From Bilabrum cf. latius (lineage: Eukaryota): a stretch of 64,000 bases of DNA. The stretch covers positions 310,001-374,000 of the forward strand of contig OZ237751.1 in assembly GCA_965178125.1 (NCBI GenBank). Direction: 5' to 3'. Of this stretch, positions 6,601 to 58,614 are shown piece by piece (positions within the stretch are counted from its first letter, which is position 1; every line of letters begins with the position of its first letter). Both the position numbers and the translations under genes were made by a program. The notes beneath the pieces are model-generated. The model was not told where the DNA came from. It worked only from the letters and a program-made list of their open reading frames with translations, and made no database searches.

Positions 6601-9600
6601 GCTAGAGCAGCAGGCAGCTCGGATAGCCTCTGACAGAGAGGCGTTGGCCAGCAAGCAGGCAGAGGCCGCCGAGGCGCTCAGGCATGCAACTGCCAAGCAG
6701 GAGGAGGCGCTCGTTGAGCAGGAGCAAGAGGCGGCCCGCACGCAAGCACGGCTGGATGCGGGCATGGCGGAACTAGAGTCTGACCGACAGATGATGCAGA
6801 GAACGAAGGAGCAGCACGCCGCCAGGATGGAAGAAGAAAGAGTGTCCGCTGCACGCGCTCGCGCAGACGCCGATGCTGCAGACGAACGTGCCAGAGTTGC
6901 TCTGGCTGAAGCAGCAGCCGCAAGGTCCGCTGCACAGGAAGCCAGGGCGGAAGCGGAAGCCTAGCTGGCGTCCGCCAAGCAGACTAACGATCGAGCAAAG
7001 CGTGCGCAGGACGAAGCAACAGAGGCTCATCGGTAGGCAGTGCTAGCAAGGGAGCGAGCCGCGCGCCAGCAAGACAGCGCAAGCACGCGCGAAGAGGCGC
7101 TCGCTCAGACCGAAGCGCAGAGGAATCGGGCGTGGCTCGAGAGGGAAGAGGCTCTCGTCGCTGCCGAGCAGGCGGTGCGGTCTGCTTTGCAAGGCGCAAG
7201 AGAGGAGAAGCACCGGGCTGCCCTCGCATCCGCTGATGCAGAGGCCACGAGGCAGACCGCCTAGGCTGAGATGGACGAGGCGAGGAGGTGGCACTCGGAC
7301 CATAGGGCACGCTTGCGCGAGGAGGAAGAGGAGCTTGAAAGGCAGCGGTAGTAGATGGAGGACGAAGCAAGGCAGTTGCAGGAAGTGCAAAACGGCCTGC
7401 ATGAGAGAGAGTCAGAGCTTAAGGCCGGGCTTGCTAGGCTAGCTCGCAGGGAGACAGATGTGCAGGAAGCAGAGAAGAGCAGGCAGCAACAGGCAGAGCA
7501 GGACAATCTTTCGGCTAGGACAGCGGCGGAGGCAGAGTTGAGCGAGAAGAGACTGGCTGTGGAAGCGGCACTTCAGGCAGTTCAAGACAAAGAGAAGGCG
7601 GTAAGCGAGCGTGAGGCACAGCTTGCTCACGGAGGGGCCTCTGCCGTTGCGGATCTTGAGGACGATGCAAGCATTGCCCGAGACGAAGCCGAGTGCAGCG
7701 ACTCCCCCCAGCTCAAGCCTGCAGACAGTCGAGCAACTAGCGTCTCAGGTGGACGAACGCGGGCCACGTCGCCCTGCGGCGGAGACTGGGACGAACGAAG
7801 CGGCAGACCGTCGGTGCCGGACGCTGTCGATGCACCATCCCTGCATGAGCGCCGCAAGCGAGAGAATGAGCTTAGAGAAGAGTTGAACGCGTCCAAGCGG
7901 GATGCTTCGCGAGAGGCGACTCGCGCTGATGAGCTAGAGGAGGAACTGCACAGAGCTCGGGCAGCCGCGCAGGCAGCACGCAGCGACGCTGATACGGCCC
8001 GAAAAGCTCTTAATCGTGTGCGGGATGAGGCTTCCGTGGCCAGAAGCAAGCTCGCCGAGGCTGAGCAAAGGGCAGGCGACGTCACTGCCGAGGTGCTTCG
8101 CGTGTGCAGCCGCGCCGATGCTGAGCGCGCGGGCATGGAGGCAGCGGAGGCGCAAAACCAGGAAGAGAACGCGAGGCTGAGGGTAGAGCTGGACGCGGCT
8201 CGACAGGCCTGTGAGGAAGCCATGCGGCTGGCCGAGCAGAGAGCTGAGCATCATGTGCTGGACCGAACGGCCTCTCTGAAGGCCGACTTGCGTGCCGCTA
8301 GAGCAGAGGAGACTCGAGTGAGAGAGCAAATGGCTGCCTGTAAAGAGGCCCTTGAAGATGCAACTGACGAGCTTGCGGCATAGAAAGCTCGAGTGTCGTA
8401 GCTGCTGCAGAGTGCCAATCGATTGAGGGCGCGATAGGAGAAGGAATCAAAAGCAGCTGCTAGCTCTGGCAAGTCGCTCGCGATCGGTTTGGCTGGCAAG
8501 AAGTCTGGTGCAGCACCCGATGGACAGACCATGATGCGCCTTCGGCAGTCTCCCATGGTATTCGCTGCAACTGTGCCTCCTGCGCGACAGCTTCCTGGTG
8601 CATCCCAGGAAACGTTACACGGGTTCGATGATAAGATTTAGCTGTCTCACGAGGTGGCAGCAGACTTAGCCTTAGATAGTGGCCCGGGCGAGGCTGCGGT
8701 AGTGAGTATGAGAGCCATTGCAGATTTGGTACAGTCTGCTAGGCGGGAGCTTGCCCAGGAAGTTACGCTGCACCAAGACGAGAATAGGCGGGCTGAGGAT
8801 CTACAAGCAAGGCTCGAATCATCTGAAAAAAGAGTTGCTGGTCTGCAACTTCAGTTAGCAAAGGAAAAGTCAGCTACTGTCCAGCTCAGCGACCAATTTT
8901 CGAGTTCTGCACGCCAGATTGCAGCATTACAGGCAGATCTCAAGAGCGCACAAGCTAGTGCTGTGACAGTAGGCTCTGGTGCTGATGCCGTGCGAAAGTA
9001 GCTTCGGGCAGCAGAAGAGAAACGCAGCGTGTTGCAGGACCGCGTGGCCGAGTACGAAGGTAGGGTGTAGGAGGTGGAGAAAGAGCTAGCCGAAGCTGAG
9101 CAAGCCAAGGGAGACGCAGTGCAAAGCTTGGAAACAGCTCGAGATAAGCAGCGGAGCTTGCAGGCAAGTTTGTCCACAGCGTATTCCGAGCGTGATTCGA
9201 CCAAGGTTGCCTGTGACGCAGCCGTGTCAGATCTCGCTCGCACCAAGTCGGAACTAGACTCAGCACTTGCCCAAGTTAAGCAACTGAGACGTAGACTGCG
9301 CGATCATGATGCTGGCAGCAGTGCCGAGTTGTAGTCGGTGCAGGCTGAGCTTGAAGCCACAGCTAAGCAGCTCGGCCAAGTTCATCGCGAGCTCGCAGGC
9401 GCTCGCGCGGCTGCAGAGCAGGCAACTTCATCTGCGCAAGAGTGGCAGGGCAAGGTAGCTACGTTGCAAGAGGAACTTACCGATGCACGCGACACTGTTC
9501 TGATGCTGCAAGCAGAGCACACGTCGAACGAGGCAGCTGTGAAAAAAACCTTGGAAAAGGCTGCAGCAGACCGGATCGAACTGCAGACGCAGCTTGCTGC

Positions 9601-12600
9601 TGCGAAGGAGGCCCATGAGAAGGCTGTGGCAGAGGGAAGCAGCAGCACTGACGAGCTCCGTCGTGAGCTGGATGCATCGCGGTCGCGGGTGTCTGAGCTG
9701 GAGGCGGAGGTGGCATCGCGTGAGAAGGCCGTGTCGGCGAGCCAGGATGCGGAGCGTGAGCTGCAGGCGGAGCTTGCTGCTGCGAAGGAGGCCCATGAGA
9801 AGGCTGTGGCAGAGGTAAGCAGCAGCACTGACGAGCTCCGTCGTGAGCTGGATGCATCGCGGTCGCGGGTGTCTGAGCTGGAGGCGGAGGTGGCATCGCG
9901 TGAGAAGGCCGTGTCGGCGAGCCAGGATGCGGAGCGTGAGCTGCAGGCGGAGCTTGCTGCTGCGAAGGAGGCCCATGAGAAGGCCGTGTCGGCGAGCCAG
10001 GATGCGGAGCGTGAGCTGCAGGCGGAGCTTGCTGCTGCGAAGGAGGCCCATGAGAAGGCCGTGTCGGCGAGCCAGGAGACGGAGCGTGAGCTACAGGCGG
10101 AGCTTGCTGCTGCGAAGGAGGCCCATGAGAAGGCTGTGGCAGAGGGAAGCAGCAGCACTGACGAGCTCCGTCGTGAGCTGGATGCATCGCGGTCGCGGGT
10201 GTCTGAGCTAAAGGCGGAGCTGGCATCGCGTGAGAAGGCTGTGTCGGCGAGCCAGGATGCGGAGCGTGAGCTGCAGACGGAGCTTGCTGCTGCGAAGGAG
10301 GCCCATGAGAAGGCTGTGGCAGAGGGAAGCAGCAGCACTGACGAGCTCCGTCGTGAGCTGGATGCATCGCGGTCGCGGGTGTCTGAGCTGGAGGCGGAGG
10401 TGGCATCGCGTGAGAAGGCCGTGTCGGCGAGCCAGGATGCGGAGCGTGAGCTGCAGACGGAGCTTGCTGCTGCAAAGGAGGCCCATGAGAAGGCCGTGTC
10501 GGCGAGCCAGGATGCGGAGCGTGAGCTGCAGGCGGAGCTTGCTGCTGCGAAGGAGGCCCATGAGAAGGCCGTGTCGGCGAGCCAGGAGACGGAGCGTGAG
10601 CTGCAGGCGGAGCTTGCTGCTGCGAAGGAGGCCCATGAGAAGGCTGTGGCAGAGGGAAGCAGCAGCACTGACGAGCTCCGTCGTGAGCTGGATGCATCGC
10701 GGTCGCGGGTGTCTGAGCTGGAGGCGGAGCTGGCATCGCGTGAGAAGGCCGTGTCGGCGAGCCAGGAGACGGAGCGTGAGCTGCAGGCGGAGCTTGCTGC
10801 TGCGAAGGAGGCCCATGAGAAGGCTGTGGCAGAGGGAAGCAGCAGCACTGACGAGCTCCGTCGTGAGCTGGATGCATCGCGGTCGCGGGTGTCTGAGCTG
10901 GAGGCGGAGGTGGCATCGCGTGAGAAGGCCGTGTCGGCGAGCCAGGAGACGGAGCGTGAGCTGCAGGCGGAGCTTGCTGCTGCGAAGGAGGCCCATGAGA
11001 AGGCTGCGGCAGAGGGAAGCAGCAGCACTGACGAGCTCCGTCGTGAGCTGGATGCATCGCGGTCGCGGGTGTCTGAGCTGGAGGCGGAGGTGGCATCGCG
11101 TGAGAAGGCCGTGTCGGCGAGCCAGGATGCGGAGCGTGAGCTGCAGGCGGAGCTTGCTGCTGCAAAGGAGGCCCATGAGAAGGCTGTGGCAGAGGGAAGC
11201 AGCAGCACTGACGAGCTCCGTCGTGAGCTGGATGCATCGCGGTCGCGGGTGTCTGAGCTGGAGGCGGAGGTGGCATCGCGTGAGAAGGCCGTGTCGGCGA
11301 GCCAGGATGCGGAGCGTGAGCTGCAGGCGGAGCTTGCTGCTGCGAAGGAGGCCCATGAGAAGGCTGTGGCAGAGGGAAGCAGCAGCACTGACGAGCTCCG
11401 TCGTGAGCTGGATGCATCGCGGTCGCGGGTGTCTGAGCTGGAGGCGGAGGTGGCATCGCGTGAGAAGGCCGTGTCGGCGAGCCAGGAGACGGAGCGTGAG
11501 CTGCAGGCGGAGCTTGCTGCTGCGAAGGAGGCCCATGAGAAGGCCGTGTCGGCGAGCCAGGAGACGGAGCGTGAGCTGCAGGCGGAGCTTGCTGCTGCGA
11601 AGGAGGTCCATGAGAAGGCCGTGTCGGCGAGCCAGGATGCGGAGCGTGAGCTGCAGGCGGAGCTTGCTGCTGCGAAGGAGGCCCATGAGAAGGCCGTGTC
11701 GGCGAGCCAGGATGCGGAGCGTGAGCTGCAGGCGGAGCTTGCTGCTGCGAAGGAGGCCCATGAGAAGGCCGTGTCGGCGAGCCAGGAGACGGAGCGTGAG
11801 CTGCAGGCGGAGCTTGCTGCTGCGAAGGAGGCCCATGAGAAGGCCGTGTCGGCGAGCCAGGATGCGGAGCGTGAGCTGCAGGCGGAGCTTGCTGCTGCGA
11901 AGGAGGCCCATGAGAAGGCTGTGTCGGCGAGCCAGGATGCGGAGCGTGAGCTGCAGGCGGAGCTTGCTGCTGCGAAGGAGGCCCATGAGAAGGCCGTGTC
12001 GGCGAGCCAGGATGCGGAGCGTGAGCTGCAGGCGGAGCTTGCTGCTGCGAAGGAGGCCCATGAGAAGGCTGTGTCGGCGAGCCAGGAGACGGAGCGTGAG
12101 CTGCAGACGGAGCTTGCTGCTGCGAAGGAGGCCCATGAGAAGGCTGTGGCAGAGGGAAGCAGCAGCACTGACGAGCTCCGTCGTGAGCTGGATGCATCGC
12201 GGTCGCGGGTGTCTGAGCTGGAGGCGGAGGTGGCATCGCGTGAGAAGGCCGTGTCGGCGAGCCAGGATGCGGAGCGTGAGCTGCAGGCGGAGCTTGCTGC
12301 TGCGAAGGAGGCCCATGAGAAGGCCGTGTCGGCGAGCCAGGATGCGGAGCGTGAGCTGCAGACGGAGCTTGCTGCTGCGAAGGAGGCCCATGAGAAGGCC
12401 GTGTCGGCGAGCCAGGATGCGGAGCGTGAGCTGCAGGCGGAGCTTGCTGCTGCGAAGGAGGCCCATGAGAAGGCCGTGTCGGCGAGCCAGGATGCGGAGC
12501 GTGAGCTGCAGGCGGAGCTTGCTGCTGCGAAGGAGGCCCATGAGAAGGCTGTGGCAGAGGGAAGCAGCAGCACTGACGAGCTCCGTCGTGAGCTGGATGC

Positions 12601-14896
12601 ATCGCGGTCGCGGGTGTCTGAGCTGGAGGCAGAGCTGGTATCGCGTGAGAAGGCCGTGTCGGCGAGCCAGGATGCGGAGCGTGAGCTGCAGACGGAGCTT
12701 GCTGCTGCGAAGGAGGCCCATGAGAAGGCCGTGTCGGCGAGCCAGGATGCGGAGCGTGAGCTGCAGGCGGAGCTTGCTGCTGCGAAGGAGGCCCATGAGA
12801 AGGCCGTGTCGGCGAGCCAGGATGCGGAGCGTGAGCTGCAGACGGAGCTTGCTGCTGCGAAGGAGGCCCATGAGAAGGCCGTGTCGGCGAGCCAGGATGC
12901 GGAGCGTGAGCTGCAGGCGGAGCTTGCTGCTGCGAAGGAGGCCCATGAGAAGGCCGTGTCGGCGAGCCAGGATGCGGAGCGTGAGCTGCAGGCGGAGCTT
13001 GCTGCTGCGAAGGAGGCCCATGAGAAGGCAATTTCTGCAGAGGAGGTGGCTGTGCTGAAGCAGCGGGTTGCCGAGCTGGACTAGCATATAGAAGACAAGG
13101 AGGATATGAAGCTTCAACTGGAGCGACTGCAGGCTATTCACAGCAAGGCAAGCTAGCAAGCAGCAGAAGAATCAGGCTCCTTGAAGGCTCAGGTGGAATC
13201 GGCAGAAGAGCGGGCTGTCCTTGCAGAGAGAAACGCTGCTGTCCTCCATCAGCGGGTCGAGTCTGCCGAGGAAGGAGCTGCAATCCAGAGAGACGAGGCT
13301 AGTAAGACTGCCGCAGAGCTGCAGAAATGCAAGCAATAGTTGGCGCTCGCTGCAAGGAAGCACAGAGAGCTTGAGGAGGCGCTCTCGGCAGCAGAGGCAG
13401 ACAGGGATGCAGCAAGCCAGGAAGTTGAGGTAGCGCACAGTAAGGCGAAGATACTGTCAGACGAGCTGAACGAGCAGAAACGGTTGGCGCTGCAGTCTAG
13501 TGGGAAGGAAGATGCAGGGAGAAAGCAGGCTGGGATGCGCACCATGGCTCGCGCTATCCGCAGGGCTGCGATGGGACGCATGAGGGAAGCGTTCGGAGCT
13601 CTTCTACAGAACGCTGCGTCTGAGGCTAGCCTTGGAGAGAAGACGTACAAAAAGATGTATGAGGCAACCCTTGAGCAGATGGAGATGGCATCCCCGAAAC
13701 CAGCGAGGAAAACGGCGAGGCCGCGGGGCTCGAGCGGTACCCCGGGCGTGGCACTTCCTGCCGACTCTCGTGGTGAAGGCGTGCAGAAACGGCCGGCATT
13801 TTCTCCGCTTGCAATTGGCACGCGCAATGGTGGTACTGCCGGTGACGGCGACTCTCCGCAGCCAGGGGGTGGCCAGGGCGATAGCGAGCAGACAGAGGGG
13901 ACCAAGCCCGTCGCGCCATCTTCCCCAAAACCGTCCGCTGGACGAGGCTGGGGTATTTTTTCGATGTTCTCGCCCAAGTCACAGGCTAAGGACGGGCAGG
14001 ACCTCCCTGACCCGCCCGGTGGAAGCAGCCCGAGCCGGGTGGGGGCAGGCATTGCCGTTCCAGAGGAGGCGCTCAAGGCTCAGAGGCTGGCAGAGGAGGC
14101 CTTGGCCGAAGAGGCAAGGGTCCTTGCGTTGGCCAAGGAAGAAGCACAGCGGGACGGTGTTTCTTTCAGTGACGGAGAGGACAGCGATGGGAGCGATGGC
14201 GAGGGCGAGGGTTCACCAGCTGGAACTGAACAGTCTGCTTGGGTGGGCAGAGGCACTGGCGCTGGCGAAGCCGCCCCGTGGATCGGCGCCGGTCCCGCTG
14301 GTTCTGATTCCAGAGCCGTGGAGGCCGGTTTCTCTTCTTCGGACGAAGATGGAGATGAAGATGAAGACGACGAGAAGGAGGAGGAGAAGGGAGAGGGACA
14401 CGGAAGGGGGCGCGGTCCTGGCGCCGGTGCCACTCGTGGTGGCACCGGCGCTGCTTCCGCTCCAAACGGGAGCACCGCAGGTACACTAGCCGGCAGCTCA
14501 CAATCTATAGGGGCTGGAGCCATCGATGCCACTGAGGCGGCACCTGCACAGCCCGCAAGCAGAAGCAGCAGCCCTCAGGCTGGGCCATCGCCCTCCAATT
14601 CCCCTTCAAGTACTCCTCGGACTGCTGGAAGGCGCAGGCGGCGGCTTCGGGGCATGGCAAGGGCTCGCGGCAGCACTGCGGGTGGGTCAACTGACCCGCC
14701 TTTGACTGCTTTGGCTGAAAGCAATACATCTGGAAGCTCTGAGCGCAGGACGAGCGGTACCGCTGGTCACCCGCCGGGGATCGACATGGCGGCTCTGAGC
14801 AGTGATGCAGAGTTGGAGAGCATGAGACAGCAGCTGGCCCAGGGTCAGGCGAGCCTCGCAGAGTCAAGACGAAGACAAGAAGAGCACATGAGATGA
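3614..14896 (+). CDS. Giant single-exon coiled-coil protein (~3,760 aa) with internal 25/35-aa tandem repeats and a disordered acidic C-terminus
   Basis: Ten ORF-track fragments (3881, 4685, 5480, 6005, 7040, 7355, 8654, 9074, 9338, 13340) share one frame. I read the gaps and found only TAG (about 28), never TAA or TGA. ATG at 3614 (MSSFLD*IEST), TGA at 14894-14896. E/A/R/Q-rich heptad composition. Confidence 0.85.
9629..13033 (+). repeat. Coding composite tandem repeat: 30 x 75-bp unit (SASQDAERELQAELAAAKEAHEKAV) interspersed with 11 x 105-bp unit (AEGSSSTDELRRELDASRSRVSELEAEVASREKAV)
   Basis: 30x75 + 11x105 = 3405 bp, which equals the span. Units are near-identical at DNA level. Confidence 0.95.
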
Positions 14897-15461: not shown

Positions 15462-16280
15462 ATGCGTCGAATCGGAGTGAAACGTGGACACGACGAAACG
15501 GCGTCACTGCTACGGATTCACAGCCTCGTGTCAGCCGCAACCGCATTGATGCCTCTTGAGGCGCACGATTGCAGCGTTGAATCGAGTCGAGCAAGTCCTG
15601 AGCAGCAGTAGCAAGCCCAGAGACAGCTTGCACCTGTCAGCAATGGCGAACCAAGCCGAAAGCACCGGAGAGTGGAGGAAGGAACGTACCATCCCATCCG
15701 ACAAGCAGACGCATCCACAGCTACCAGCAGATCGTGGACTGAGTCTACTCACAGCACCCCGGTGCATGCCGGAGTGGGCACATCGAGCAGCGCGCACTCC
15801 CCAGCGACGGTTGCTCTTGGCGCTGGGGCCCATCCCGTCAGGCTGCATCAAGCAGTTGGCATGGGGATCAGTGGGTCGTGGCAGTCTCCCCCTGGCGGGA
15901 CCAGCTTGGCCGCTGGTGTGTCTTCTTCGCACACCGCCTCGGAGTCGCAGGCAACCGAGTCGGCCGCTCGTGTGGCCAGCACCAGCAGCCGGGCTGGAGA
16001 TTCGCGAGGTGTCCAAGACGCGAAGAGGTCTCCAGCCAGACCGAGCGCGACGAACAAGATCGGAGCATACGAGCCCGGCAGTCGGTCCTCCGGGAGAAGG
16101 CGAGCATCATCGGCTCGGGCTCGAGCACCATACTCAGACGCTGGTGGCGCATCGCGCAGGCCGACGAAGAGCCCATCACGAGGACCTGCCATGAGCTCAT
16201 CGGCTTCGTCCCCACTGATGGCTGCATATGCTGTGGCCTCTGGGGCAGTAGATTCGGCCAGGCCAAGAACAGCTGCGGGA

Positions 16281-16364
<84 letters not shown>

Positions 16365-17264
16365 TCATCCAAGGCGATGCGACAAGGCAGGCGCAAGCAC
16401 ATCACGGGGGCCGCTGCAGGCACCATTCCCGTGAATCCCACAGCCAAAGTGCACACATGCACGGTGTGCGGCGCCGGCTTTGCCAGAGTCGGTCTGCTCC
16501 GCCGACACGCCCACGAGCGGCACACCAGCGACGGCAAGCTGGATCAGGCCCTGGCGCAGTGTGACGAGCTGGCAGCCAGGGTTGCACTGACGCAGATGGC
16601 CGAGAAGCCCTTCCGCTGCTTCCAGTGCAACAAGCGATTCAGCAACGCGGTGTCGCTGGCGAAGCACACGAAGTCCCAGCATGAGGTGAAACGGAAGCAC
16701 CAGTGCCCTCATTGCCCACAAGCCTTCGCCGACTCCGGCACCCTGCGCACCCACGTGGCTGCAGTGCACGAGAACCAGCGCCCGTTCCAGTGCAAGACGT
16801 GCGGCAAGTGCTTTACGCAGTAGAGCAACCTGAACAAGCACGTGTCGGTGATTCACCTGAAGGAGAGGAAGTTTGTCTGCACCATCTGTGGTCACGCTTC
16901 CCAGACGGCCGAGCACCTGAGGAAGCACGTGTCGACGGTGCATTTGGATGAGCGGCCCTTTGCATGCGAGGAGTGCCCGAAGCGCTTCAACTCGGCCTAC
17001 CAGCTGCGGCGACACGTGTCCTCGGTGCACCGAGGAGAGAGGCCGCACGAGTGCCCTGGATGCCATCGGCGTTTCTGCTAGCGCTAGAGCCTGCGGAACC
17101 ACAAGTGCGCAGCTGCTACGAAGCAGGCCAAGCCAAGCGCGCAGGCAGCTGCAGCCATGAGCAAAGCCGTGTATGAGTGCGAGTTGTGCGGCAAGGTGCT
17201 CCTGAGTCAGGGTTGGATGTCGCGTCACATGCGGGCTGTGCATCCGGGGCAAGGCGTTGGCTGA
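15462..17264 (+). CDS. C2H2 zinc-finger protein, paralog 1 (~600 aa, about 8 fingers, poly-Ser tract)
   Basis: Fingers CTVC, CFQC, CPHC, CKTC, CTIC, CEEC, CPGC, CELC with EKPF/QRPF/ERPF linkers. In-frame TAG at 15609, 16821 (inside F-x5-L of a finger), 17079 and 17085. Starts MRRIGVKR, ends at TGA 17262-17264. Confidence 0.9.
16284..16364 (+). repeat. (AGC)27 coding microsatellite (poly-Ser)
   Basis: Direct count. The paralog has (AGC)12 at 18616-18651. Confidence 0.95.
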
Positions 17265-17757
17265 ACACATTAATCGGCCATGAACCCAGCAGTTGAATAA
17301 TTACTTGTGAACCTGTTCATCTCTGAAAGAACCGTAATGACCCACAATCTGGTCGGCCTCGACATTTCTTCTAGTTGCTTGCGACCGCCGGCGCGCGGTT
17401 GTCTCTGCCAGTGGTGTGCACCATTGGCTTGTTTCAAGTTGTGGTGTGTACTTATGCGCCACACCCGACCGAATCTCACCCTACGATTCCTATATCAACA
17501 CCCGACTGTGCAAGACAAGAGCTGCTTTGTTTAATTCTTTTTCTTCAATTGTAAGTGCATCACATTTCGATTGCGTGGCTGCAGTTGCAGCAGTCTGAAA
17601 TTGATTGAGGGACCACGTAACGGAATTCGATTCTGAATACCGCGATTAACTTTAGTTCAAGCCGATACTTTGATTAAGTCTAGTAATCGGGTTATTAACT
17701 ACAACACTGTATTTGGCTGGATACCAGGATCTGCGCGCGAGTAATCTTCAAGAGGTT

Positions 17758-18612
17758 ATGCATCGAGCTGGAGTGAAACGCCGACGTGCTCAGGAATTCT
17801 AGTCAGAATAGCCAGAGGATGCAGTTGGTGGCTCTAAAGCAAAACCTGTATCTGATATCTATAGTCTGGCATCTGCTGCGGCCGCGTTATCCCCTGCTGC
17901 GGAGCAATAGAGCAGCACGTCGTCTGGAAAAGGATTGATCGACCGGCATTGGCCACAACAACGATCGAGCAGCAATGGCGAACCAAGCCGAAAGCACCGG
18001 AGAGTGGAGGAAGGAACGTACCATCCCATCCGACAAGCAGACGCATCCACAGCTACCAGCGCATCGCGGACTGAGTCTACTCACAGCACCCCGGTGCATG
18101 CCGGAGTGGGCACATCGAGCAGCGCGCACTCCCCAGCGATGCTTGCTCTTGGCGCTGGGGCCCATCCCGTCAGGCTGCATCAAGCAGTTGGCATGGGGAT
18201 CAGTGGGTCGTGGCAGTCTCCCCCTGGCGGGACCAGCTTGGCCGCTGGTGCGTCTTCTTCGCACACCGCCTCGGAGTCGCAGGCAACCGAGTCGGCCACT
18301 CGTGTGGCCAGCACCAGCAGCCGGGCTGGAGATTCGCGAGGTGTCCAAGACGCGAAGAGGTCTCCAGCCAGACCGAGCGCGACGAACAAGATCGGAGCAT
18401 ACGAGCCCGGCAGTCGGTCCTCCGGGAGAAGGCGAGCATCATCGGCTCGGGCTCGAGCACCGTACTCAGACGCTGGTGGCACATACCGCAGACCGACGAA
18501 GAGCCCATCACGAGGACCTGCCATGAGCTCATCGGCTTCGTCCCCACTGATGGCTGCATATGCTGTGGCCTCTGGGGCAGTAGATTCGGCCAGGCCAAGA
18601 ACAGCTGCGGGA

Positions 18613-18651
<39 letters not shown>

Positions 18652-19551
18652 TCATCCAAGGCGATGCGACAAGGCAGGCGCAAGCACATCACGGGGGCCG
18701 CTGCAGGCACCATTCCCGTGAATCCCACAGCCAAAGTGCACACATGCACGGTGTGCGGCGCCGGCTTTGCCAGAGTCGGTCTGCTCCGCCGACACGCCCA
18801 CGAGCGGCACACCAGCGACGGCAAGCTGGATCAGGCCCTGGCGCAGTGTGACGAGCTGGCAGCCAGGGTTGCACTGACGCAGATGGCCGAGAAGCCCTTC
18901 CGCTGCTTCCAGTGCAACAAGCGATTCAGCAACGCGGTGTCGCTGGCGAAGCACACGAAGTCCCAGCATGAGGTGAAACGGAAGCACCAGTGCCCTCATT
19001 GCCCACAAGCCTTCGCCGACTCCGGCACCCTGCGCACCCACGTGGCTGCAGTGCACGAGAACCAGCGCCCGTTCCAGTGCAAGACGTGCGGCAAGTGCTT
19101 TACGCAGTAGAGCAACCTGAACAAGCACGTGTCGGTGATTCACCTGAAGGAGAGGAAGTTTGTCTGCACCATCTGTGGTCACGCTTCCCAGACGGCCGAG
19201 CACCTGAGGAAGCACGTGTCGACGGTGCATTTGGATGAGCGGCCCTTTGCATGCGAGGAGTGCCCGAAGCGCTTCAACTCGGCCTACCAGCTGCGGCGAC
19301 ACGTGTCCTCGGTGCACCGAGGAGAGAGGCCGCACGAGTGCCCTGGATGCCATCGGCGTTTCAGCCAGCGCTAGAGCCTGCGGAACCACAAGTGCGCAGC
19401 TGCTACGAAGCAGGCCAAGCCAAGCGCGCAGGCAGCTGCAGCCATGAGCAAAGCCGTGTATGAGTGCGAGTTGTGTGGCAAGGTGCTCCTGAGTCAGGGT
19501 TGGATGTCGCGTCACATGCGGGCTGTGCATCCGGGGCAAGGCGTTGGCTGA
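17758..19551 (+). CDS. C2H2 zinc-finger protein, paralog 2 (~597 aa), tandem duplicate
   Basis: Near-identical to paralog 1 from ~17971 onward. The start MHRAGVKR matches MRRIGVKR and is in frame only through TAG at 17800, 17809 and 17908. Further TAG at 19108 and 19372. Ends at TGA 19549-19551. Confidence 0.9.
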
Positions 19552-19645: not shown

Positions 19646-22600
19646 TCACTCTTGTCCCTGCAGGAGAAGCGCGAGACCTCGTCTGACCCACTTGGACGGC
19701 CTGCCCTCACAAGGCAGGGCAACGGCTACCACAAAGTTCACAGAGCGACCCGTTGACGTCAGCGCACCTCGTCGCGCGCTGGTCACGTAGACGGGACATA
19801 GGTAGGTGCCCTGTATCAACGGAACGCCCCTGTGATGGCCTGCGCTGCTCCTCCCGTCGGCAGAGGAAGATGCGAGATCTCCGCTTGCTTCTGCGTCTAG
19901 ACCGACCGCATCGTCGTGAATGTCGCTTGTCGCGTCATCTTGGCCACCTTCCTCATCATCAGAATCCGCTGGCATGTACTTGTAGTCGCCACCCATTGCA
20001 TCCTGCACATCTTCCTCATGCTCCTTGTCTTTGTCAGCAGCCAGCTGTTGGCTTGCCTGGGACTCGAGGGCGCTCGACATCACCGATCGCAGGGAGCTGA
20101 ACATCCCACCGCGCTGCCGGGAAGATGACCCACCCACCGAGCCGAACGCGGCAGCCCTCGCCTGTTCGGGTCCTGATGTACCTGCCCCAGTTGTCGCCTT
20201 GCCTCCCGCGGCTGCCATCACAACGTCTGCTAGCCCGCCCTTACTCTTGCCTGTGGCATTGCTGTCGAGGCTTTGCCGCCTAGCCATGGCCAAAGAAGCA
20301 CGCTTAGCTCGATCTAGCAGACTCTTTCGTCTCGCCCTGATTGCCGCCGTCGCGCGCTTGCTGGCTTCCGAAGTGAGAGATGGCTTGAGCCACAGCACCG
20401 GACACTCACCTCGCAGCTGTCCCGGGGCGCAGTCCGAAACGCAGCCAGACTGCTTGCTAAATCGGGCACCATCCAGAACCAGCCCGCCGACCAGGATCCC
20501 AGTAGCTGGCGCATCGTAGTACGCACCATAACCCCCGTCCATACTCCCGGCGCCAGAAACGCCCGTGCCTCCCCGAGCCACGAAGGTACGCCCGCCGCGT
20601 GGAGGCCGTCCGAGAGGAGGCCTCCCGCCCCCGAAACCCCCCGAGCTGCTGGCACCACCAGTAGTGGAAGCAACGGACGCGGACGCTCCAGGCTTGCCCT
20701 TGGGACTTGGTGGCACGGGCGACTGGCCCGGCCTGTCGCCATGCGCCGCTGCGGCGTCAGCTTCTTCCAGCAACTTTGAGAGGGTCCGCGACGAGCCACC
20801 GAAGCTGCCCTATCGCGGCGGTCCCGGCGGCCTGGGCATGGGACCTGCATGTGAGGCAGCGACAGAGGCTGTTCCAAGTGCAGTGGACTGCCCCTGGCTG
20901 CTGGTTCGCGAGCCGCGCCTGTCCCGTGGACCTCCCCTGGCCTCCACTGGCATCCTCAGGGCACCGTCAGACAGCGCGCTGTCAGATACGTGGGGCATAA
21001 CCTGGGCAGTAATGACGAGTGCATCCACGGGCACCCGGAACCTCCTGGCATGTCTCTGCAGCACTGCGGCCAGGAACCCCTGAGGGGAGAAGAGGCCACC
21101 GAGCCACCAGATAGCAGGCGGGCCGTGCTGCACCCACAGGTGCAAGAATGCAACTCGCCTAGCCAAGTCCTCCACAAAGCTGCGCAGAGGCAGCTCTGTC
21201 GGATAGCTCACTCGCTTCCAGCTGGTTGGCACTACGGCACCAGCCATGGCGGCTGCATCGCTTTCTGCAGCCTAGGTTAGGGCATGCTCGCCCGAGAGAC
21301 CGCCACGCAGGCCTCTGAGCTTAGATCCAACGACTGTCAGCAATCGGTTGATGCGCTCAATCTCCATGTGCAGCGCCACGTTGAGGCTGTGGTCGCTGCC
21401 GTTGCGAGAATCCAGCGCCTCCTTGAACGAAGCAACTGAATTCTAGCCCTCGTCGTTGGTGCGAGACCTCGTCGCCGTGTTCGCATGAGAGTGCAGAGTT
21501 CCGTGGGATGCTGCGTGGCTATTGCCTCGTTGGCGCTACTTGGGTCCTCCGGCCGTCCCGCCGGCTGCGGAGCTGCTAGCGGCAACTGGGGGGCGCATTG
21601 ACCGTGCCCAACGGACGTTAATCGGTCGCGGAACAGCATTTAGCGTGTCGTCCACGAGCTGAAGCATGTCACCAGTGTCCATGCCGGCGATGGCAGCAAC
21701 ATCCGCCGCTGACGGTGCTTCATTCTCCTTCCGTTCCTCGTCTTCCCTTCCGGGACCGCTCCCATCCGACCGGCCCTCATCAACAGCGCTGGCCATGCTC
21801 GATGCAATCTTCACGGCGCGCTGCTGCTCTCCAAGCCCCATGCCGTACACCGTATCCAGTGCCCGCAAGGCCTCGGCTCTATCCCTGGCAATACCAGCAG
21901 AATGGTCCAGCCCGGCTGCCTACGGAAGGGACGACGATGACATCCTGGCAATCTTGGCCAGCACCTCATCCTTCTCCGCGTGTCCTCGGGGCAGCACCTC
22001 GAACCAGTCCGAGGGCCTTTCCGTTTCTTCATCGGAAGCATGCCTCGTATCCGTTCTGGCATCAGCTCGCCGGGCGACACGACCGAGCCTGAACATTGGA
22101 GAATGCACAGCTGGGGTAACGTACGATCGCAGAAGCACTCGCAGTGCCCTCCGGTCGAAATCATCCGTCACCCGCCCACCGTGGTGACACTCCCCCAACA
22201 AATAAGAAAGCACTCGGTACTAAAAGTCCTCTTGCGGGTCAGCTGCAGGCACTTGAGCTGCCTCTTCGGCGAGCGATCGCACCTGCAGTAGCGCAGCGCT
22301 AAGGTCGGGGGTCCCAAACGCGTAAGGTGCTACAAACCCTCGGCTACCAAAAGTAGTCCGGAGCCGGAGGGCCGCATGGAACGCGCACACGGCATATACC
22401 ATCCGCCGGTAGCTTGCGAGCCATCCCATGCCGTAGGTCGATTCTTCGCCTGCCTGCGTCCCATCCGCAGTCGAGCCGTCTTGGCTTCCTGCAGCAGCTT
22501 CCTGCTCATCCCCGGGCAGGCGTGAGTGCGCCTAGTCTTCCGATGGAGGCCACAGACCGGCCCTTTCGTCGATATTGGCTAGGATGGTCGGCGTGTACAT

Positions 22601-25600
22601 CTCATCCGAGGAAGCCGCGCCGTTCGTGAATGCGTCTTCGAGCGTTCCGCGCAGCCCCACGGGCGGATCCAAAGAAATCTTGACGCATTCATGCAGCAGA
22701 GCAACGGGCATGCCACCCGCCGACGTGCCCGAATCCGGCCGGCTAGCTGAGGTTGAGGCGCTACTCGCCTGTACTGTTAGCAGCAGACGGAACTTCTGGT
22801 TGATCTTGGCAGGCAGAAGTGAGGCGCCGCCGCTGATCTCGTCTGCCGCAGTTGAGGGTCTCAGCTCTTGGTGCTCCCCAGTGGGCGAGCTGAAGCCGTC
22901 GGGGCTGTCGGCGTCTTCGTTGCCCGCATCTCCTCCGGCCGCCCTGCGTCCCTCTGCGCCGAACGGCTCGTCCGTACGAGCGGTCAGGCTCCGGCTGTTT
23001 AGGGTGCGCACGATGTCAGCGACAGTTTTCATGTACGAGCCGTACAGGTGGCAGTTCTCCAGGACGACCCAGCGACCCTCGGCAGCCGCTTGTGCGATGG
23101 CCATTGAGGCCACGGCCGCCCTGCCGTGCCCAAGGGATACGGTTGACACGTGCGCCCTGTTCTTGTGGGCAAGGGCGCGCAGCTGAGGGATTGGATCAGC
23201 TCCTTGCGCCAGTGTGATGAGCACTGGGTGCTTCGGGGACGATTCCGAGAGCGCGTCTGCGAGACTTGGTGCCTTTTGTCTGCCTAGCTGCTCGGAGACG
23301 TGCCTTGCCACAAAGGAGTTGAGGCCAGCTACGAGGGAGTGAGGGGCTAGCGACCGGGCCACGCACAGTCTGCCGATGTCACCGAGCTCTGTCAGGCCAG
23401 GTGGTAGCTGGGCTGACAGGGGGTCTCGGCTGCGCATGAACGACATCCAGGCCATGCGGTTCTGGCTCATGTGCTGCGGCAGCCACACGAGTGGGAGCAG
23501 ATCGGCAGCATGCGCAGGAAGCGAGCCCCCGGACATGCCAATCCCAGATGCGAGACCAGTGGCGCTCCCTGTCTCGTACCTCTTCAGTATCTCCAGAACG
23601 CTTCTGGCGGCTGCAGCGGAGCAGTCAATAGCGGCATTCCATTGCTAAGCCGTCAGCCACTCGGGTCTGTGCGCCGCTGGCGGGGGCAAAGAAGTCTACT
23701 AGCCGCTCGGGTCCGAGCTAGGAGGCGCATCTAGAGTTCTAACCTTGGGCTGAGCAGAAGATAAGGACCCCTAGTCGTCTTGCTTGCTCGAGGTAGCTTC
23801 TTGGCCCTACCGGCTGACTGCATCCTTTTGTCCCACTGAGGGAATCTCGGCCGATCGCACCTGCATAGCCGCCTGTAGGAACGCCACAGCAGAAACCGTA
23901 GCAGACGTGTGGCCCCCTAGATCCTTGGAAGCAATCTACTCCAGGGCAGCTGGGGCACCCGGGGGAGGTGCGCCGGACAGCAGGAAAGACAGGATAGAGT
24001 CTGGAACCATGAGGCTGTCCCGCAGGTGCACAAGCCGGAGGGACAGAAGGAAGGTGAACGACAAGCGGTCGGATTGCGGGAGAGCTCGCGTGACGATTTC
24101 GTTCACCGACTCGATCGCAATGTCGCTCGCCTCACTGAGCCGGCCCCGCAGGGTACCGTCCGGGTCGATCGCTTCCTGAGCGGTCTCCCTGTCAAAGTCG
24201 ATCTCGCGCTCGGCGTCATCGTGGGCGGGTCCCGCATGCTCCCTGGCGTACTCCTCCTCGCTATCATACTCTTCCCCGTCGCCGTCGCTGGCGCTCCCAG
24301 CAGACCGTCCTCGGGCCAGCCGGCGAGCCTGCTTCTCTGCCTCCTCTCGGATTTTCTTCTACTTGGACTCTTTCTCTCGCGTCACCTTTAGTGCCTCCAG
24401 CAGGCGACCCTCCAGCCACTGCAGCGGCCACTGGCAGAATGGCAGCCGACGTCCTACGTCAGACACCGAGAAAAACAACGAGGCACCCACTCGCGCCACG
24501 GGTGAGTACACCTCGCGGGCGGTGTCGATGCGCTCCTCGGTCACCACAGCCGCCTTCTGCTTCTCCATGACCTCATCAGCGAGCCCCTTGGACTCAGTAA
24601 GCGCGTCGACCGCCTTGGAGTTGTCCAGGAGCGCACCTTGGTCGTCTCCACTCAGCAAACCAAGGATCCGGTCCTCAATAGCGCGAAGCTTGGCACGGTT
24701 CGCCGCGGATTCCATCACAATCCGCTGTTTGGCACGATCCAGGTTCGGCCTGTCTGCGCGTACCACCGCTGAAAGCAGCTAGTCCCTGAGACCATCCCAG
24801 GTGACGCTGAACTCTACCACTGTGACCAGTGTCTGCGTCTCTGCCGACAACCGCAGAGCTGATGACGACGACTTGGTCAAGAGGTAGAGGCGGAATCCCT
24901 TGGCGTAGTCGATGGTGCTGCCACCGACCTGGACGGTGTGCCTGCCACCCTGGCTGCGCACGTTGTGTCGAAGCAAGGGCTCCAGCCATGCCGGCAAGTC
25001 GACCTCCTTACGGCCTGTGTCCTTAATTCTGACTGCACTGGAGGACCTGTTGTGGCTGCCTCCATCCATCGCTACAGCTTGCCCCACGCCCTCCAACAGT
25101 ATCGGCATGCCCAGCTGCACTGCCGTTTCCACCCGACGGACGGCATCCCTTGCGTTGATATCAACGATGATGGGTTCTCGGCTATCTCCCCTCTCCATTG
25201 ACATGATCCACTTGCGAGCCTGGTTCTAAGGATCTACAAGCAGGGGCCAGCGCCGAGCATTGGTGGTGATCAGTGCACTCTCAATCGAGGTGGGGTCCGG
25301 CGGCAAACCTGCGATGGTCCACTGCTGCAACTGCACCGGGTCGCCGAGCACCCGCTCTAGCACACCCGATGCCCGTGACCCTGAGCTCGAGCCATCACCG
25401 CCACCAGTCACGCCCGGCACCGAGATTCCCACTCCGGACTGCAGCACTTGGTCAAACCAACTCTAGATCGTGCGAGACCGCACCTCGCCCGGAAACGGGC
25501 CCATGTAGGCGATAGTCGCAGCAGATACCAGCACATCGCCGACGTAGTGCCTTAGCTTCTTGTCAAGAGATCGTGCCTCCTCAACCCACCTCTGAGCCTC

Positions 25601-28600
25601 GCTGCCGAGCTGCTGCACAAGCTGCCTGGCTCTCTACAGCTTGAGGTTGGTCAGGCGCACCTCGTCCTCCAGCTGCTGCTTCCTCTGCTTGGAGGCGCGC
25701 AGCTTGGCCGCGAGGGCTCCCAGTCTCTCCTCTACCTTGGCCAGCTCAGCTTCTTTCTCGCGCAAGGAAGCAGCCACACGCGCGTGCTCTGCCTCTGCCT
25801 CCTCGAGCCTGGCCTACTTCGGCCTGATGACCTGCAGGCTGTTGTGGTATGCCACGATCGCTCGCACCCAGGATGCTAATCCGTGTGCTGCCATGGACAC
25901 ACTCCTTAGCCGGCTGGGCTCGAACTCTGGCGACTCGATCAGGGGGCGCACTTGCCTCACCACGGAGTCCGAAATTTTGTCTCGGTTGTACTCGAGCAGT
26001 TTCTAGATGAATCGAGCGTCGGCGAGGAGGTTCTTCTGGGCGCTCTGCCAGTAGTCAAGCTTTACATGGGCCGGGTCGTGCGGCAGCGGGTCCGGGACCC
26101 TTTGTGGTGGCTTCTTGAACATGATGCAGACCGCCTGCATTACCAGCCGCACTCCGTCGGGGGGTGACGTCATCGTGCGTACCTCCGTGATATCTTGTCG
26201 CCGGAGCGAATTGACCGCATGCTCTGCAGCCCTGAGCTGAGGCATGGCCGCCGCCAGGTCCGCCTCGCACTCTTGCTGTATGGCTCTGGCCTCGTCCGCC
26301 TTGGCTGTTGCCGCCCTGTTTTCTCGAGCGACCTGCGCCCTGACCTTTTCAACCGAGCGAGTCTCACGCTCGATCTCGCGCATAACAGCTTCTGTCTCCT
26401 CGCGGTTCTACTGCAGATGAGGCTTCAGCGACTGCAGCTGCTTGCTCATGGTTGTCACGGCCATGGCCGTTTGTTCAAGCCGCTTGATTCCTGCGATGTA
26501 CCTGTCTCGTGCACCCCTTAGATCCTTTGCTTTCTATTTGAGAAGGCGTTTGAAGATGAAAGTCAGCTGCAAGAACCCCGATGGTGACACGTAAACGACC
26601 TCCCCTGTGGCCCTGCGATGCGCTCGAGCCACAACCAGAGCATTCTCGTGGATCCACGAACACAGGCGCATCACCTCGGCGGTGCGCTTGCCTGTCCCTC
26701 CAGTCGGAAGGCCACGGTCTCGTGCCACCTTCGCCTCCGATTCAGTTCTTTCAATGCCCCCTTCTTCTCCCCCATCTGCATCGTCAGACCCATCTTCACC
26801 AGCCTTGGATTCCTATGCTCCAGCAGAGCCGCCGGACGAGGCGGCTGCAGCGGCAGCCCCTTGGTCCACAATCTTCTGCGAGGTTGCGCCAAGCTTCACC
26901 ACATCTTGTTGCGCCGTCTCTGGTGGGCTTAGCTGCCGCACAGACGACTACAGCAGCGAGAAAGCCACGGCAGTTAGTCCGTCGCTGGGCCACGGCTCCA
27001 TCCAGTTGATGGCGCAGCAGGCCGACAGGGAGGGGTACTGCAGCAAAGCTCGCCGGAGCGAGTCACCGGTCGGACTCATGCACAGCACAATGTGCAGGTG
27101 GTCGCGCACGTGGTCCACAAAGAACTGGTAGCACTCAGAGACGCCCAGGTCACGAGAGGCAGAGAGGCGGGCAGCAGCCGCGCTGAGCAGGCCGATGCCG
27201 CTAGATGCCCCCGCACCACCGTCACCGCCCCCATCTCCGCCCACGTACGCGGACTCGTCTGTGATGTCGTGCACTCCAGCGATGCCTCCAGCCCGCCCGT
27301 CGGCGTACGCCGTCAGACTCGCAGACTGCTTCGCACGCATCTTGGCTCGCGCCATCGGTCGCATCTTCTCGGCGATCACTCCCTTCTCACCAGGAGAGAA
27401 CAAGTCCGGCACGTCACCGGTAGACAGAAGGGCATTGAGATCCTCGAGAACAAACGTGTGCCTCAGTTGCGCCTCAGACAGCAGCAGCACAGTGGAGCCG
27501 CTGTGCTGTGACCCACCGTCGCCACCAGCCCCGCCCGAGCCCCCTTCCATTGCGTCAGCAACTGCAGACTCTGGCCCACCCGCCACAGATGTACCAGCCT
27601 TCTCTAGGATAGACTTCAGATCGTCTCTCCACTCTGCTAGGCCGTACTGGCCACTTGATTCTACTTGCACGATCTCATGCCCGCCCATGTACGCCGCCAA
27701 GCGACACAAGCTGGCCCTGCCAGAGCCTGGCAGACCAACGAGCAACGCATGCCCGCCCGGCATCTTGAGCACTCGTGCGATCCTGGCGCAGTGCTGCACG
27801 GCATACCGAAACAAAGTCAGTGGCATGGGCTGCTGGCTGATGGCATTGTAGTCGTGCAAAAATGCGTTCATGATCTGCCGCACGCTGCCCATCCCGTCCC
27901 AGGCCAACAGCTCGGAGGGAGCCAGGTCACCTGCAGATCGATCACCACTTGCAGCTCGAGCATCGATGTCGTTCAGGAGCTTCTCTTGCGCCTGACGGGC
28001 CTGCAGTAGGCGACGGCGGCGGGCTGCTTTCTCTCGCTATGTGCCAGCGATATGAGAGAGATCTGCGGCTGCCCTGCCACTCTTCTGGCGCTGTCTGGCC
28101 GCATTCAGCCCGGCTCCTGAAGCCGACGGGCCGGACGGCCCTCCCTTGCCCTGTTCTGCTGACTGTTCCGCAATTTCCAGCTGCATCATGCCAATGGAGC
28201 TTCCAGTCGTCCTGACGGGCAGCTCCTTGTAGTCTCCGCTTTGCTGTTCTCCTCCGATGAGTGCGGCTGCGATGCCCTCCGATTCGCTGGCACCAGCACT
28301 ACCACCGCCCTCTACCATGAGTCCAACGGCGGCTGCATCGTGAGAGTCTTCGCCTCCCACTACACCAAAGTCACCGAACATGAGGTCACTCATTTCCTCG
28401 AACGTGTCAACACGGTTGTCACCATCTGAGTCGAGATGGGCCAGCAGCCTGTCGGGGTCCTCAGAGAAGGTCGACCGTAGGATGGCGCGAGCGAAAGACG
28501 CCACCATGTGACGGTCTCCATCGTCCACCAGCCGATCGCCGAACACTCGGAGTGACTCGTGCGTCCATGCCCTCGTGATCACGGCGGTATCGTTGCCCAC

Positions 28601-31600
28601 TGCGGAAGATGGCACCATCATAATACCGAATACTACGCGCGCCACGTCCCTGAGGTTGAAGGTGTAGTGCGCCTTGGCTGGTGTTGGAGGCAGGGCCTCC
28701 TTCACCTTCCGGAAGAGCTGCACGGACCCTGAAACGATGGGCCGCGTCATCTTCCGGATCCGATCCGAGTAACCATGCTGGGAGAAGTGCCACGATACGA
28801 TGGACGTAAAAATACGCGTTAGCGTCACGTCGTCAGAGGCCGGCACACCTACCGTGTGCACCTGTCGGAGCAGTCTCCGAGACACCTGTTGTCTGCCGCC
28901 GCCAGGTGGTCCCATAGCACCGATGACCAGCGTATCCTCGATTCGCTGGAATGTCGCTCCCCGTTTCACTGAGAACCATCCGCCGTGTGATAGCAGCTGT
29001 GTGATGAGCTCGAGCGGCGGACAGGCGCCAGAGATCGAGTCACGAGTGGGCAGGTTCATGTCATCTACAAAAACGAGCAAGCTGTGGTGCTGCGGCCCGC
29101 CGCCTGCACCCCCGTCTTGCGGGTCGCCCGACTCGCCGCCCGCGGCAAGACCGGGACCAAGCCGGCCAGGACCGCGAGGCACCAGCGCAGATTCCACTGC
29201 GTTCTGCACGGCACTCGCCTCGGTGCCAGAGCTGAAGGCAAGCGGCAAGCTGTAGAACGTTCGCTTCACCTTCGGCGCCGCTTGCCCGGTCTAACCCATG
29301 GACGAAGACACTCCAGCCAGCCATCCGCTCGCATCATCCCTTGCAGATGCAGCCCCAAGGCCACGAAGCCTCCGGAGCAGGACCAGCCCGCCTGTATGTC
29401 GCATCTGCCTGGACACAACACTGCCTCTGGACGACAAGGGGTCGGCTGCACTCAGCCCCATCGCGTGTGACATGCCCTCCGGGTCAACATCGGCCATGTC
29501 CCTGGCGTATGCCTCGTCCTCGGCATCTTCGCCCTGCTGCGGCAGGTGCGAATACGACTGCTGCTAGTGTTGCGTGCCGCTGGCCGATGTTCCGGCGATT
29601 GCTTGGCCTCCACGCACAAGGCTTGCGCCTGTGTGAACAGCCCCGCCACTCGCAGGATCCTCAGCCTCCTGCTCGCTGGCAGCCGCAGCCAGGGCAGCTG
29701 CCGACGCTACACCCATGCCTCTCGCGATTTGCGACAGACGTTGACGCAAGCAAACTGTCTTGCCCGTGCCAGTCGGACCCACGAAAACAATAGAATGCCC
29801 CCTGACTATGGCTGCATCCAGCAGCCAGGTCATGCAAGCGGTATCACCGGTTGGCACCACCAGCTGCGAGGGAGAGATGAGCTGGTTCTTGCCGTGACCC
29901 GCAACACTCAGTCCCAGGCTGGAGTCGACCAGGGAGTCCCACTATACCCACTATCCGAGGCCCTGCGTGCTCAGCTTGTACTCGAAGACAGACCCTCCCT
30001 GTGGGAATGGCTAGGCCACCTTGCGTCTCCGCTGGCCCTGCTGGGCAGAAGTGCCAGCCAGTGCGCTTCGAAGCCAAGCATCGAATCGAGCTCTACCGGA
30101 TGCATCCAGGTGTCCTCCAACCGACCACACAAGAGAAAACAAGAAGGACATCTCCAGGTAGCCGTGAAGCTCTTCTTGCGACATCCCGGGCCAAGTTTTC
30201 TGCATGCCGTCACCGTCTCCGTGCGTGCTCAGCTCCGGTTCGCCACCTGCCGCACTTGAGGCAGGATGTTCCTGCCCGTCATTGGCCCCACTAAAAAGCA
30301 TCTCAGCGTTGCGGTCCTCTTGTTTGATAATTTCTGCGGCATTGGCTGCCAGGTGAGCCCTGCTCATGCGCCTCCCCCCGCGTCCTGACTGGCCTACCCT
30401 GCCTGCTTGGAAGCTGCCGCCAGCACCTGCCGACATCGAAGACACGGCTTGCATGGCCTTGTCGGGCACTTGCTCGCGGAACAGAGAGGCCAGCATGGAC
30501 ACCATAGACGAGGCCAAGGCCACCTCGCTGAGCGAGCCCAGCGGCATGTAGCTGCTGTCGCCAAGGCCTCCTGTCCCGGTCTCGAACCTGCGCTTGCTGC
30601 TCCCACCGCTGCCCGTCAGCAGAGCGATGGCTGCGGCCGTTTCCTCTGCAGTAGGGGCGGGCTAATCTCCACCGTGCGCAAAATCTCGCTGCATCACAGT
30701 GGCAGCATCCGCTGCGGAGTGCTCGAATGTGTTCCGCCGTGCGCCATCTCCAGACAAAGGGTCCCGCAGTAGCGCCGACCCGTGCCCCGTGGCCTTCACT
30801 CCCATGGCCCGCCGCAGCACAGCTCCAGGCAACAGCTCGTTGATGTCCTCCTCACCGCCATCGCCCCCGGCGCCCTGCCCGTGTTGACCCGCCCCGCGGT
30901 GCACCGAGGCTACTGCGGCGGTGGCGGCGTTGGCGGCGCCCTACACCTCGTCATCGAAGTCGTCTTGAGAGCTTGACCCGGCGTCCCTGCGGCCTGCAGA
31001 GCCCGTCAGTACCAGTCGGACGGCGGGATCGAACAACCACTGGAAGAGCTCAAGTAGCACGGCGGCATTCTCGGGATGTGCCAGCACGGGCGGTAGCTAG
31101 TCCAGCCAGGACGCCACGACAGGCCTCCAGCCAACCCTCCACTTCTCGAAGTAGACCATGGCGCATCGACTCACCGTCGCCGGCGATGCTGCCGCCAAGG
31201 ATTCGGTCTCGAAGACCAGCTGCATGCGGTTGTGCAGTGGCAGCACCTCACCGCTGGACAGGCAGAGGATCTTGCTATCGTCCAGCACGGAGTTCAAGTT
31301 CTCCATCCAGGCCGAGTCTACGGTGCCGTCGAGCACCAGCCACTTCCGACGCGCCTCCTTGTCAGCAGCCGTTGCTGCTCTTCGGAAAATGGCCGCAAGC
31401 AACCCGTCGGTCCATTCTTGACTCGTGGGGTCGTGTTTGCCATACAGCTGCTCCAGCGAAACCGCCCGAGGACTGAGTGAGAATGCATCCACGGGGAGCT
31501 CAGGCGGGGGGCTCGGCACGATCTCGCGCGTGGGGTATGAGCCGTCTTCTAAAGGCTCCATGGTCTTGTCGGGGACGTGGAGGCCCTTGCCATTGGTTGC

Positions 31601-58567: not shown

Positions 58568-58614
58568 GCTTTGAACTGACCTTGTACGACGAAACTTATT
58601 CGGTCGCGTCGCCG

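Follow-up and report, generated by a model that had tools for sequence, protein, structure and literature searches.

UAG as a very probable glutamine codon in GC-rich nuclear DNA of a stramenopile-like protist, Bilabrum cf. latius

The stretch of DNA analyzed here, 64,000 nucleotides of contig OZ237751.1 (positions 310,001 to 374,000 of the Bilabrum cf. latius assembly GCA_965178125.1; hereafter called the window, with all positions given in its coordinates), contains two tandem genes for C2H2 zinc-finger proteins, both of which carry in-frame TAG codons. One of these codons in copy 1 lies opposite a CAG in copy 2, and an initial annotation of the DNA had proposed on this basis that TAG and CAG behave as synonyms. 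When TAG is read as a sense codon, the window resolves into long open reading frames (ORFs) with eukaryotic content. On the sequence evidence set out below, UAG is very probably an ordinary glutamine (Gln) codon in the nuclear DNA of this organism, with UAA and UGA retained as stops. Support for this assignment comes mainly from outside the zinc-finger genes, namely, from the use of TAG across the window, from protein profiles, and from codon exchange with an orthologue, and it upholds the proposed synonymy, for which the paralog pair alone would have been insufficient. The features of the zinc-finger pair are as follows.

15462..17264, forward strand: C2H2 zinc-finger gene copy 1, an ATG-to-TGA ORF of 600 codons with TAG read as Gln, with 4 in-frame TAG codons (Pfam zf-C2H2, E value 5.7e-31)
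17758..19551, forward strand: C2H2 zinc-finger gene copy 2, an ATG-to-TGA ORF of 597 codons with TAG read as Gln, with 5 in-frame TAG codons (Pfam zf-C2H2, E value 1e-32)
17079..17081, forward strand: TAG of copy 1 (residue 540) opposite CAG of copy 2 (sequence, paralog alignment, contigs of public runs)
19366..19368, forward strand: CAG of copy 2 opposite the copy 1 TAG (sequence, paralog alignment)
16821..16823 and 19108..19110, forward strand: TAG common to both copies, within the finger CKTCGKCFTQ-TAG-SNLNKH (sequence, Pfam, frame check)
17085..17087 and 19372..19374, forward strand: second TAG common to both copies, likewise within an intact finger (sequence, frame check)

Both zinc-finger products exceed the curated Pfam cut-off for PF00096 and contain C-x2-C ... 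F-x5-L-x2-H-x3-5-H repeats. The in-frame TAG codons begin at 15609, 16821, 17079, and 17085 in copy 1 and at 17800, 17809, 17908, 19108, and 19372 in copy 2. The codons are as first annotated, with ttc tgc TAG cgc TAG agc ctg at 17073 to 17093 of copy 1 and ttc agc CAG cgc TAG agc ctg at 19360 to 19380 of copy 2, and TAG 17079 presumably corresponds to helix position -1 of the last finger in the usual finger numbering. The TAG at 16821 and 19108 is likewise kept in frame in both copies within CKTCGKCFTQ*SNLNKH, as had been reported. It had further been argued that the F-x5-L spacing of the finger excludes an intron at this site. A full-length match to the zf-C2H2 profile (positions 1 to 23 of 23) extends over residues 442 to 465 of copy 1 and spans the TAG at residue 454; since the profile aligns end to end across the codon, a residue is required there and neither an intron nor a stop fits, which extends the original argument from introns to stops.

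The two copies are near-identical from about 15635 and 17967, respectively, through the TGA stop and are unrelated past it. Upstream of these positions they have diverged, and the gaps between them within the ORFs (45 and 9 bases) are both multiples of three. The genes are best regarded as tandem paralogs whose 3' two-thirds have been kept near-identical by recent duplication or gene conversion. An uninterrupted run of AGC (Ser) codons has 27 codons in copy 1 (16286 to 16367) and 12 in copy 2 (18614 to 18650), which is the 45-nucleotide indel. Over the approximately 532 codons compared, 14 differ, comprising 10 nonsynonymous and 3 synonymous differences and the one TAG/CAG pair. The zinc-finger half (311 codons) has three codon differences: TGC/AGC (Cys/Ser), the adjoining TAG/CAG, and TGC/TGT. 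The codon alignment of the paralogs, suggested in the initial annotation as a check, thus places the copy 1 TAG opposite CAG in frame, and the change between 17079 and 19366 would be a synonymous Gln/Gln change; with one such site, the alignment cannot by itself prove synonymy.

The reality of the bases was assessed in contigs from four public runs (X3, X5, X6, and X8), which were compared over 16380 to 17960. The TGC-TAG variant is present in contigs of X3 (word depth of 168) and X6, two runs from two studies, and the AGC-CAG variant is present in contigs of X5 and X6; the X8 contig ends before the site. The TAGs at 16821 and 17085 are unaltered in all contigs that cover them. Both variants thus occur in independent public-run contigs, which rules out an assembly error as the source of the T at 17079. 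The X3 contig has the copy 1 variants (T, T, and C at 17076, 17079, and 17189) but past 17264/17265 it continues with the 3' flank of copy 2; either the contig or the assembly mixes both copies or gene conversion shuffles them. An X6 contig has A and C at 17076 and 17079 and is otherwise identical to copy 1 up to 17253, including the C of copy 1 at 17189. Parts of 17281 to 17490 have no contig cover in the runs compared, and no conclusion is drawn from this. Such contigs collapse repeats and so do not assign the variants to copy 1 or copy 2. Of the earlier statement that copy 1 carries TAG rather than CAG, it therefore stands that the TAG variant is real, and its phase to copy 1 is not given by these contigs.

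Outside the zinc-finger pair, seven further ORFs complete the set of nine on which the codon counts are based.

507..2471, forward strand: IGPS-PRAI fusion of tryptophan synthesis, with no TAG and with the stop TAA five residues past the end of the PRAI profile
3443..14896, forward strand: ORF for a coiled-coil repeat protein, 3,817 codons, 30 in-frame TAG codons, stop TGA, no Pfam family
19646..41869, reverse strand: heavy chain of an axonemal dynein (inner-arm type), 7,407 codons in a single ORF, 50 in-frame TAG codons, stop TGA where homologs end
44045..47026, reverse strand: ORF for a SET-domain protein, 4 in-frame TAG codons, stop TGA
48473..51883, reverse strand: ORF for a calpain-7-like protease, 3 in-frame TAG codons, stop TGA
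53343..56741, forward strand: ORF with a weak Cnd3-like match, 1,132 codons, 3 in-frame TAG codons, stop TGA
56843..58666, reverse strand: ORF without a family, 607 codons, 3 in-frame TAG codons, stop TAA

The nine ORFs together comprise 16,943 codons, among which there are 102 in-frame TAG codons and not a single in-frame TAA or TGA. Their stops, a small sample, are TGA in seven and TAA in two, with TAG in none. In eight of the nine genes, 8 to 16% of the Gln-type codons are TAG (the remaining gene has none among 14), and the share among all Gln codons is about 12%. In the dynein gene, the counts of TAG, TAA, and TGA are 50, 0, and 0 in the reading frame, compared with 52, 17, and 117 and 46, 18, and 137 in the other two frames, which indicates that the reading frame contains TAG as often as the other frames do but excludes TAA and TGA. 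In 69 of 115 C-terminal alignments, the dynein, like its homologs, stops three residues past the last aligned residue, and the PRAI profile reaches residue 649 of the 654 in the fusion protein. Because the C-termini of dynein and PRAI coincide with those of homologs, TGA and TAA are real stops. The composition of residues next to TAG adds little to this, as the share of Gln beside TAG (0.064) compared with the background (0.043) and with the share beside CAG- or CAA-coded Gln (0.057) is too weak a signal to use. None of the genes in the window shows an intron.

The residue encoded by TAG is indicated by dynein homologs. A protein search yielded 221 proteins at an E value of ≤1e-50 among 752 candidates scored, and the best 120 of these 221 were used. 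Among the dynein columns that contain a TAG codon of the window, Gln is found in 120 of 120 homologs at residue 5697, in 114 of 120 at residue 5548, in 108 of 120 at residue 2404, and in 51 of 120 at residue 5289, and P0017, the nearest homolog among the matches listed, has Gln at eight TAG positions. In a profile log-odds test over 2,994 well-aligned dynein positions, in which 19 of the 50 TAG sites could be aligned, Gln was the sole residue with a positive score (+11.0), followed by Lys (-6.5) and Glu (-10.0), with every other residue below Glu, including Ser (-20.6) and Leu (-33.7). As a control, the same method assigned 61 of 61 sense codons to their correct residues, and when subsamples of 19 CAG sites were drawn, Gln was called in 477 of 500 draws. 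Homologs of the calpain are uninformative, with its three TAG sites falling in variable columns.

A closer comparison is provided by metagenome contigs. Scanning these with dynein residues 5100 to 5750 gave 11 loci, of which L001 (1 to 2296) and L002 (1 to 4717) are 87% identical to the query in their best segment. The two agree in 604 of 604 overlapping codons and represent the same dynein orthologue, which has 84 to 88% protein identity and 72 to 74% DNA identity to the window dynein. L001 has 9 in-frame TAG codons in 765 codons and L002 has 19 in 1,572 codons, with no TAA or TGA in either. The merged orthologue (the full L002, with L001 added past its end) was aligned to the window over 1,706 codons, of which 1,440 encode the same residue; of these, 854 use a different codon, indicating heavy turnover of synonymous sites. 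The 12 TAG codons of the window face CAG at nine sites, TAG at one, TCC at one, and CGT at one, and the 21 TAG codons of the orthologue face CAG at 13 sites, CAA at three, TAG at one, CAC at two, GCC at one, and GCA at one. Among the 32 sites with TAG on either side, 25 therefore pair with CAG or CAA, often in otherwise identical flanks such as PSGFLQLTFIF, and one has TAG in both. The rate at which a codon is retained within the Gln family is 83% (window) and 81% (orthologue) for TAG, compared with 84% for CAG and 72% for CAA. Exchange of TAG, CAG, and CAA at synonymous rates, for which the initial annotation had recommended a genome-wide test, is thus found at the small scale of 1,706 codons of one dynein orthologue. 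TAG serves as a sense codon in this orthologue as well, so environmental samples contain a relative of the window's organism; a scan of genome contigs found no relative. Three other loci (L003, L004, and L005) are dynein fragments of 62% GC that are 33 to 34% identical to the query and have no TAG in 565 to 603 codons, and they are probably from standard-code organisms or other paralogs.

The assignment of UAG to Gln has to be set against several observations that weigh on the other side. The paralog pair, while compatible with TAG/CAG synonymy, is a weak test of it, because its single TAG/CAG site adjoins a Cys/Ser replacement and most of the codon differences (10 of 14) are nonsynonymous. 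Of the 32 sites in the orthologue comparison, six face non-Gln codons, some of them in low-complexity stretches. In the dynein profile, two conserved TAG columns read Glu, namely, residue 2447 (Glu in 107 of 120) and residue 6650 (Glu in 49 of 57), which would suit a different residue as the meaning of TAG, for example, Glu, Lys, or the Leu reported for the uncultured rhizarian exLh. That TAG encodes such a residue is nevertheless very improbable, given the log-odds values for Lys, Glu, and Leu and the columns that read Gln in nearly every homolog; in addition, TAG sites of the orthologue pair never face GAG, GAA, AAG, or a Leu codon, and CAG- or CAA-coded residues of the same dynein likewise fall in Glu columns (3 of 27 conserved columns). 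Only nine gene ends are available, so TAG could terminate occasionally, and codes in which a codon is Gln inside genes and a context-dependent stop at some gene ends do exist, as in Condylostoma (PMC4967479; 10.1101/2022.04.12.488043). We consider such an ambiguous TAG unlikely here, as none of the nine ORFs ends in TAG and a dual role is unneeded where TGA and TAA are kept as dedicated stops. Finally, neither ARAGORN nor Rfam detected a tRNA gene or any other RNA gene in the window, so the putative decoding tRNA is not among its contents, and eRF1 is not encoded in the window.

Editing of U to C in mRNA, converting UAG to CAG before translation, would mimic the TAG/CAG pattern of both the paralogs and the orthologues. 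It is a highly unlikely explanation: about 0.6% of all codons would have to be edited, and no nuclear system is known to do this. In contigs of X5 and X6, the T is retained at 16821 and 17085 (in X6 also at 17079), which is a weak argument, as the RNA labels of runs X5 to X7 are guesses. That the TAGs are true stops, in pseudogenes or through sequencing or assembly errors, has nothing in its favor except the standard meaning of the codon and is refuted by the 102 TAG codons against no TAA or TGA in the nine ORFs, by a 22-kb dynein ORF that retains conserved domains down to its last residues, by the same use of TAG in two independent metagenome contigs, and by the T variant at 17079 in contigs from two studies. 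A code in which both UAA and UAG (UAR) specify Gln, of the table 6 type, was also considered and rejected, as the 16,943 codons include no in-frame TAA and TAA ends two of the nine ORFs, including IGPS-PRAI at its conserved C-terminus. The assignment of UAG alone to Gln, with UAA and UGA as stops, is therefore retained; it corresponds to NCBI translation table 15. By analogy with other organisms that use the same code, UAG would be decoded by a tRNA-Gln with the anticodon CUA, which would not read UAA, and eRF1 would lack efficient recognition of UAG. A tRNA-Gln(CUA) together with a weakened eRF1 has been argued for Iotanema and for ciliates and constitutes a documented route to such a code (PMC5304391).

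The proteins of the window give some indication of the organism's affinity. No close relative of any tested protein was found in the protein collection searched, with best identities of 32 to 55%. The best named match of the IGPS-PRAI fusion, among 120 matches listed, is Cafeteria roenbergensis (45% identity), and all of the other named matches among the 120 are stramenopiles (diatoms, oomycetes, and Triparma). In a FastTree phylogeny of 36 dyneins, picked from 121 proteins for having names, the window dynein groups with P0017 (support of 100) and then with the labyrinthulomycete Hondaea (support of 100); this tree is a hint only, because FastTree readily joins long branches. Nothing in the window points to a ciliate. 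With moderate confidence, the organism is probably a heterotrophic stramenopile or a relative of that group. The dynein is approximately 3,000 residues longer than most of the homologs listed (mostly about 4,100 to 4,700 amino acids) because of many Ala/Gly/Ser-rich insertions, and P0017 (7,044 amino acids) has the same long, insertion-rich build; the P0017 locus was not found in the metagenome contigs.

Other parts of the window are compact or repetitive. In two convergent gene pairs, the stops are only 94 bases (19552 to 19645) and 101 bases (56742 to 56842) apart, indicating that the 3' untranslated regions are very short or overlapping. Within the coiled-coil ORF, 9581 to 13029 consists of in-frame tandem repeats of 75 and 180 nucleotides (25 and 60 residues, 'ELQAELAAAKEAHEKAV...'), which account for about one-third of the 3,817 codons and contain no TAG. 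A satellite at 59483 to 63025 is composed of about 40 copies of an 88-nucleotide unit with 95 to 97% matches and extreme GC and AT skew. It lacks TAA and TGA in several frames and so yields spurious ORFs of 900 to 1,200 codons; two ORFs at 59378 to 63093 lie inside it and were dropped from the gene counts, because the period of the satellite is not a multiple of three. A second, C-rich tandem array (63365 to 64000), with periods of 112, 167, and 281, runs off the end of the window.

Most code changes of this kind are known from AT-rich ciliates. The window, at about 62% GC and with TGA as the main stop (seven of nine ORFs), is an unusual setting in comparison. Few variants of the standard nuclear code are known, and codes that give different meanings to UAG and UAA are rarer still (PMC5304391; PMC11687900), so that every independent case tests ideas on the capture of stop codons. 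A full-text literature search, incomplete for subscription journals, turned up no change of the nuclear code in any stramenopile, labyrinthulomycete, or bicosoecid. The code itself is known, and it is the lineage and the GC-rich setting that appear to be new. We suggest tentatively, with a little less than even confidence, that UAG was reassigned to Gln in an independent and unpublished event in a GC-rich, stramenopile-like protist lineage, without seen introns, that is present in several public data sets and environmental metagenomes. If true, the case would be the first variant of the nuclear code in stramenopiles, one that arose under GC rather than AT pressure, and a stramenopile-like lineage would be added to the known code variants. 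There is also a practical consequence, in that gene prediction under the standard code would truncate nearly all long genes of the organism, which may explain the lack of close relatives in the protein collection.

Reading of UAG as Gln with UAA as a stop has been described in Iotanema spirale, in Protocruzia tuzeti, and in two lineages of phyllopharyngean ciliates (PMC5304391; PMC11687900). In the fornicate I. spirale, as in the window, the nuclear assignment of UAG to Gln and of UAA to stop was inferred from alignments of conserved proteins, and a tRNA-Gln(CUA) and an altered eRF1, with T32G reported, are the predicted mechanism (PMC5304391). What is known of Iotanema, an anaerobic metamonad, comes from a transcriptome, whereas the window is GC-rich DNA that is stramenopile-like by its tryptophan synthesis fusion and its dynein. 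P. tuzeti and the phyllopharyngeans share the codon assignment of the window through several independent origins (PMC11687900); they are ciliates, whereas the window has no ciliate signs. The UAR codes of many ciliates, hexamitid diplomonads, ulvophycean green algae, Streblomastix, and Amoeboaphelidium (NCBI table 6) are also cases of a stop captured by Gln (PMC11687900), but they read UAA as Gln too, and the window keeps TAA as a stop. UAG alone has been reassigned, with UAA as a stop, to Leu in the uncultured rhizarian exLh and to Ser in Scotinosphaera (PMC5304391; PMC11687900), amino acids that differ from that indicated for the window. The last of these comparisons is with viruses, since crAss-like and other gut phages use the same table as the window (table 15). 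There, the host keeps the standard code, and a suppressor tRNA carried by the phage recodes TAG as Gln in late genes (PMC9523058), whereas the code of the window would be a constitutive, eukaryotic nuclear one.

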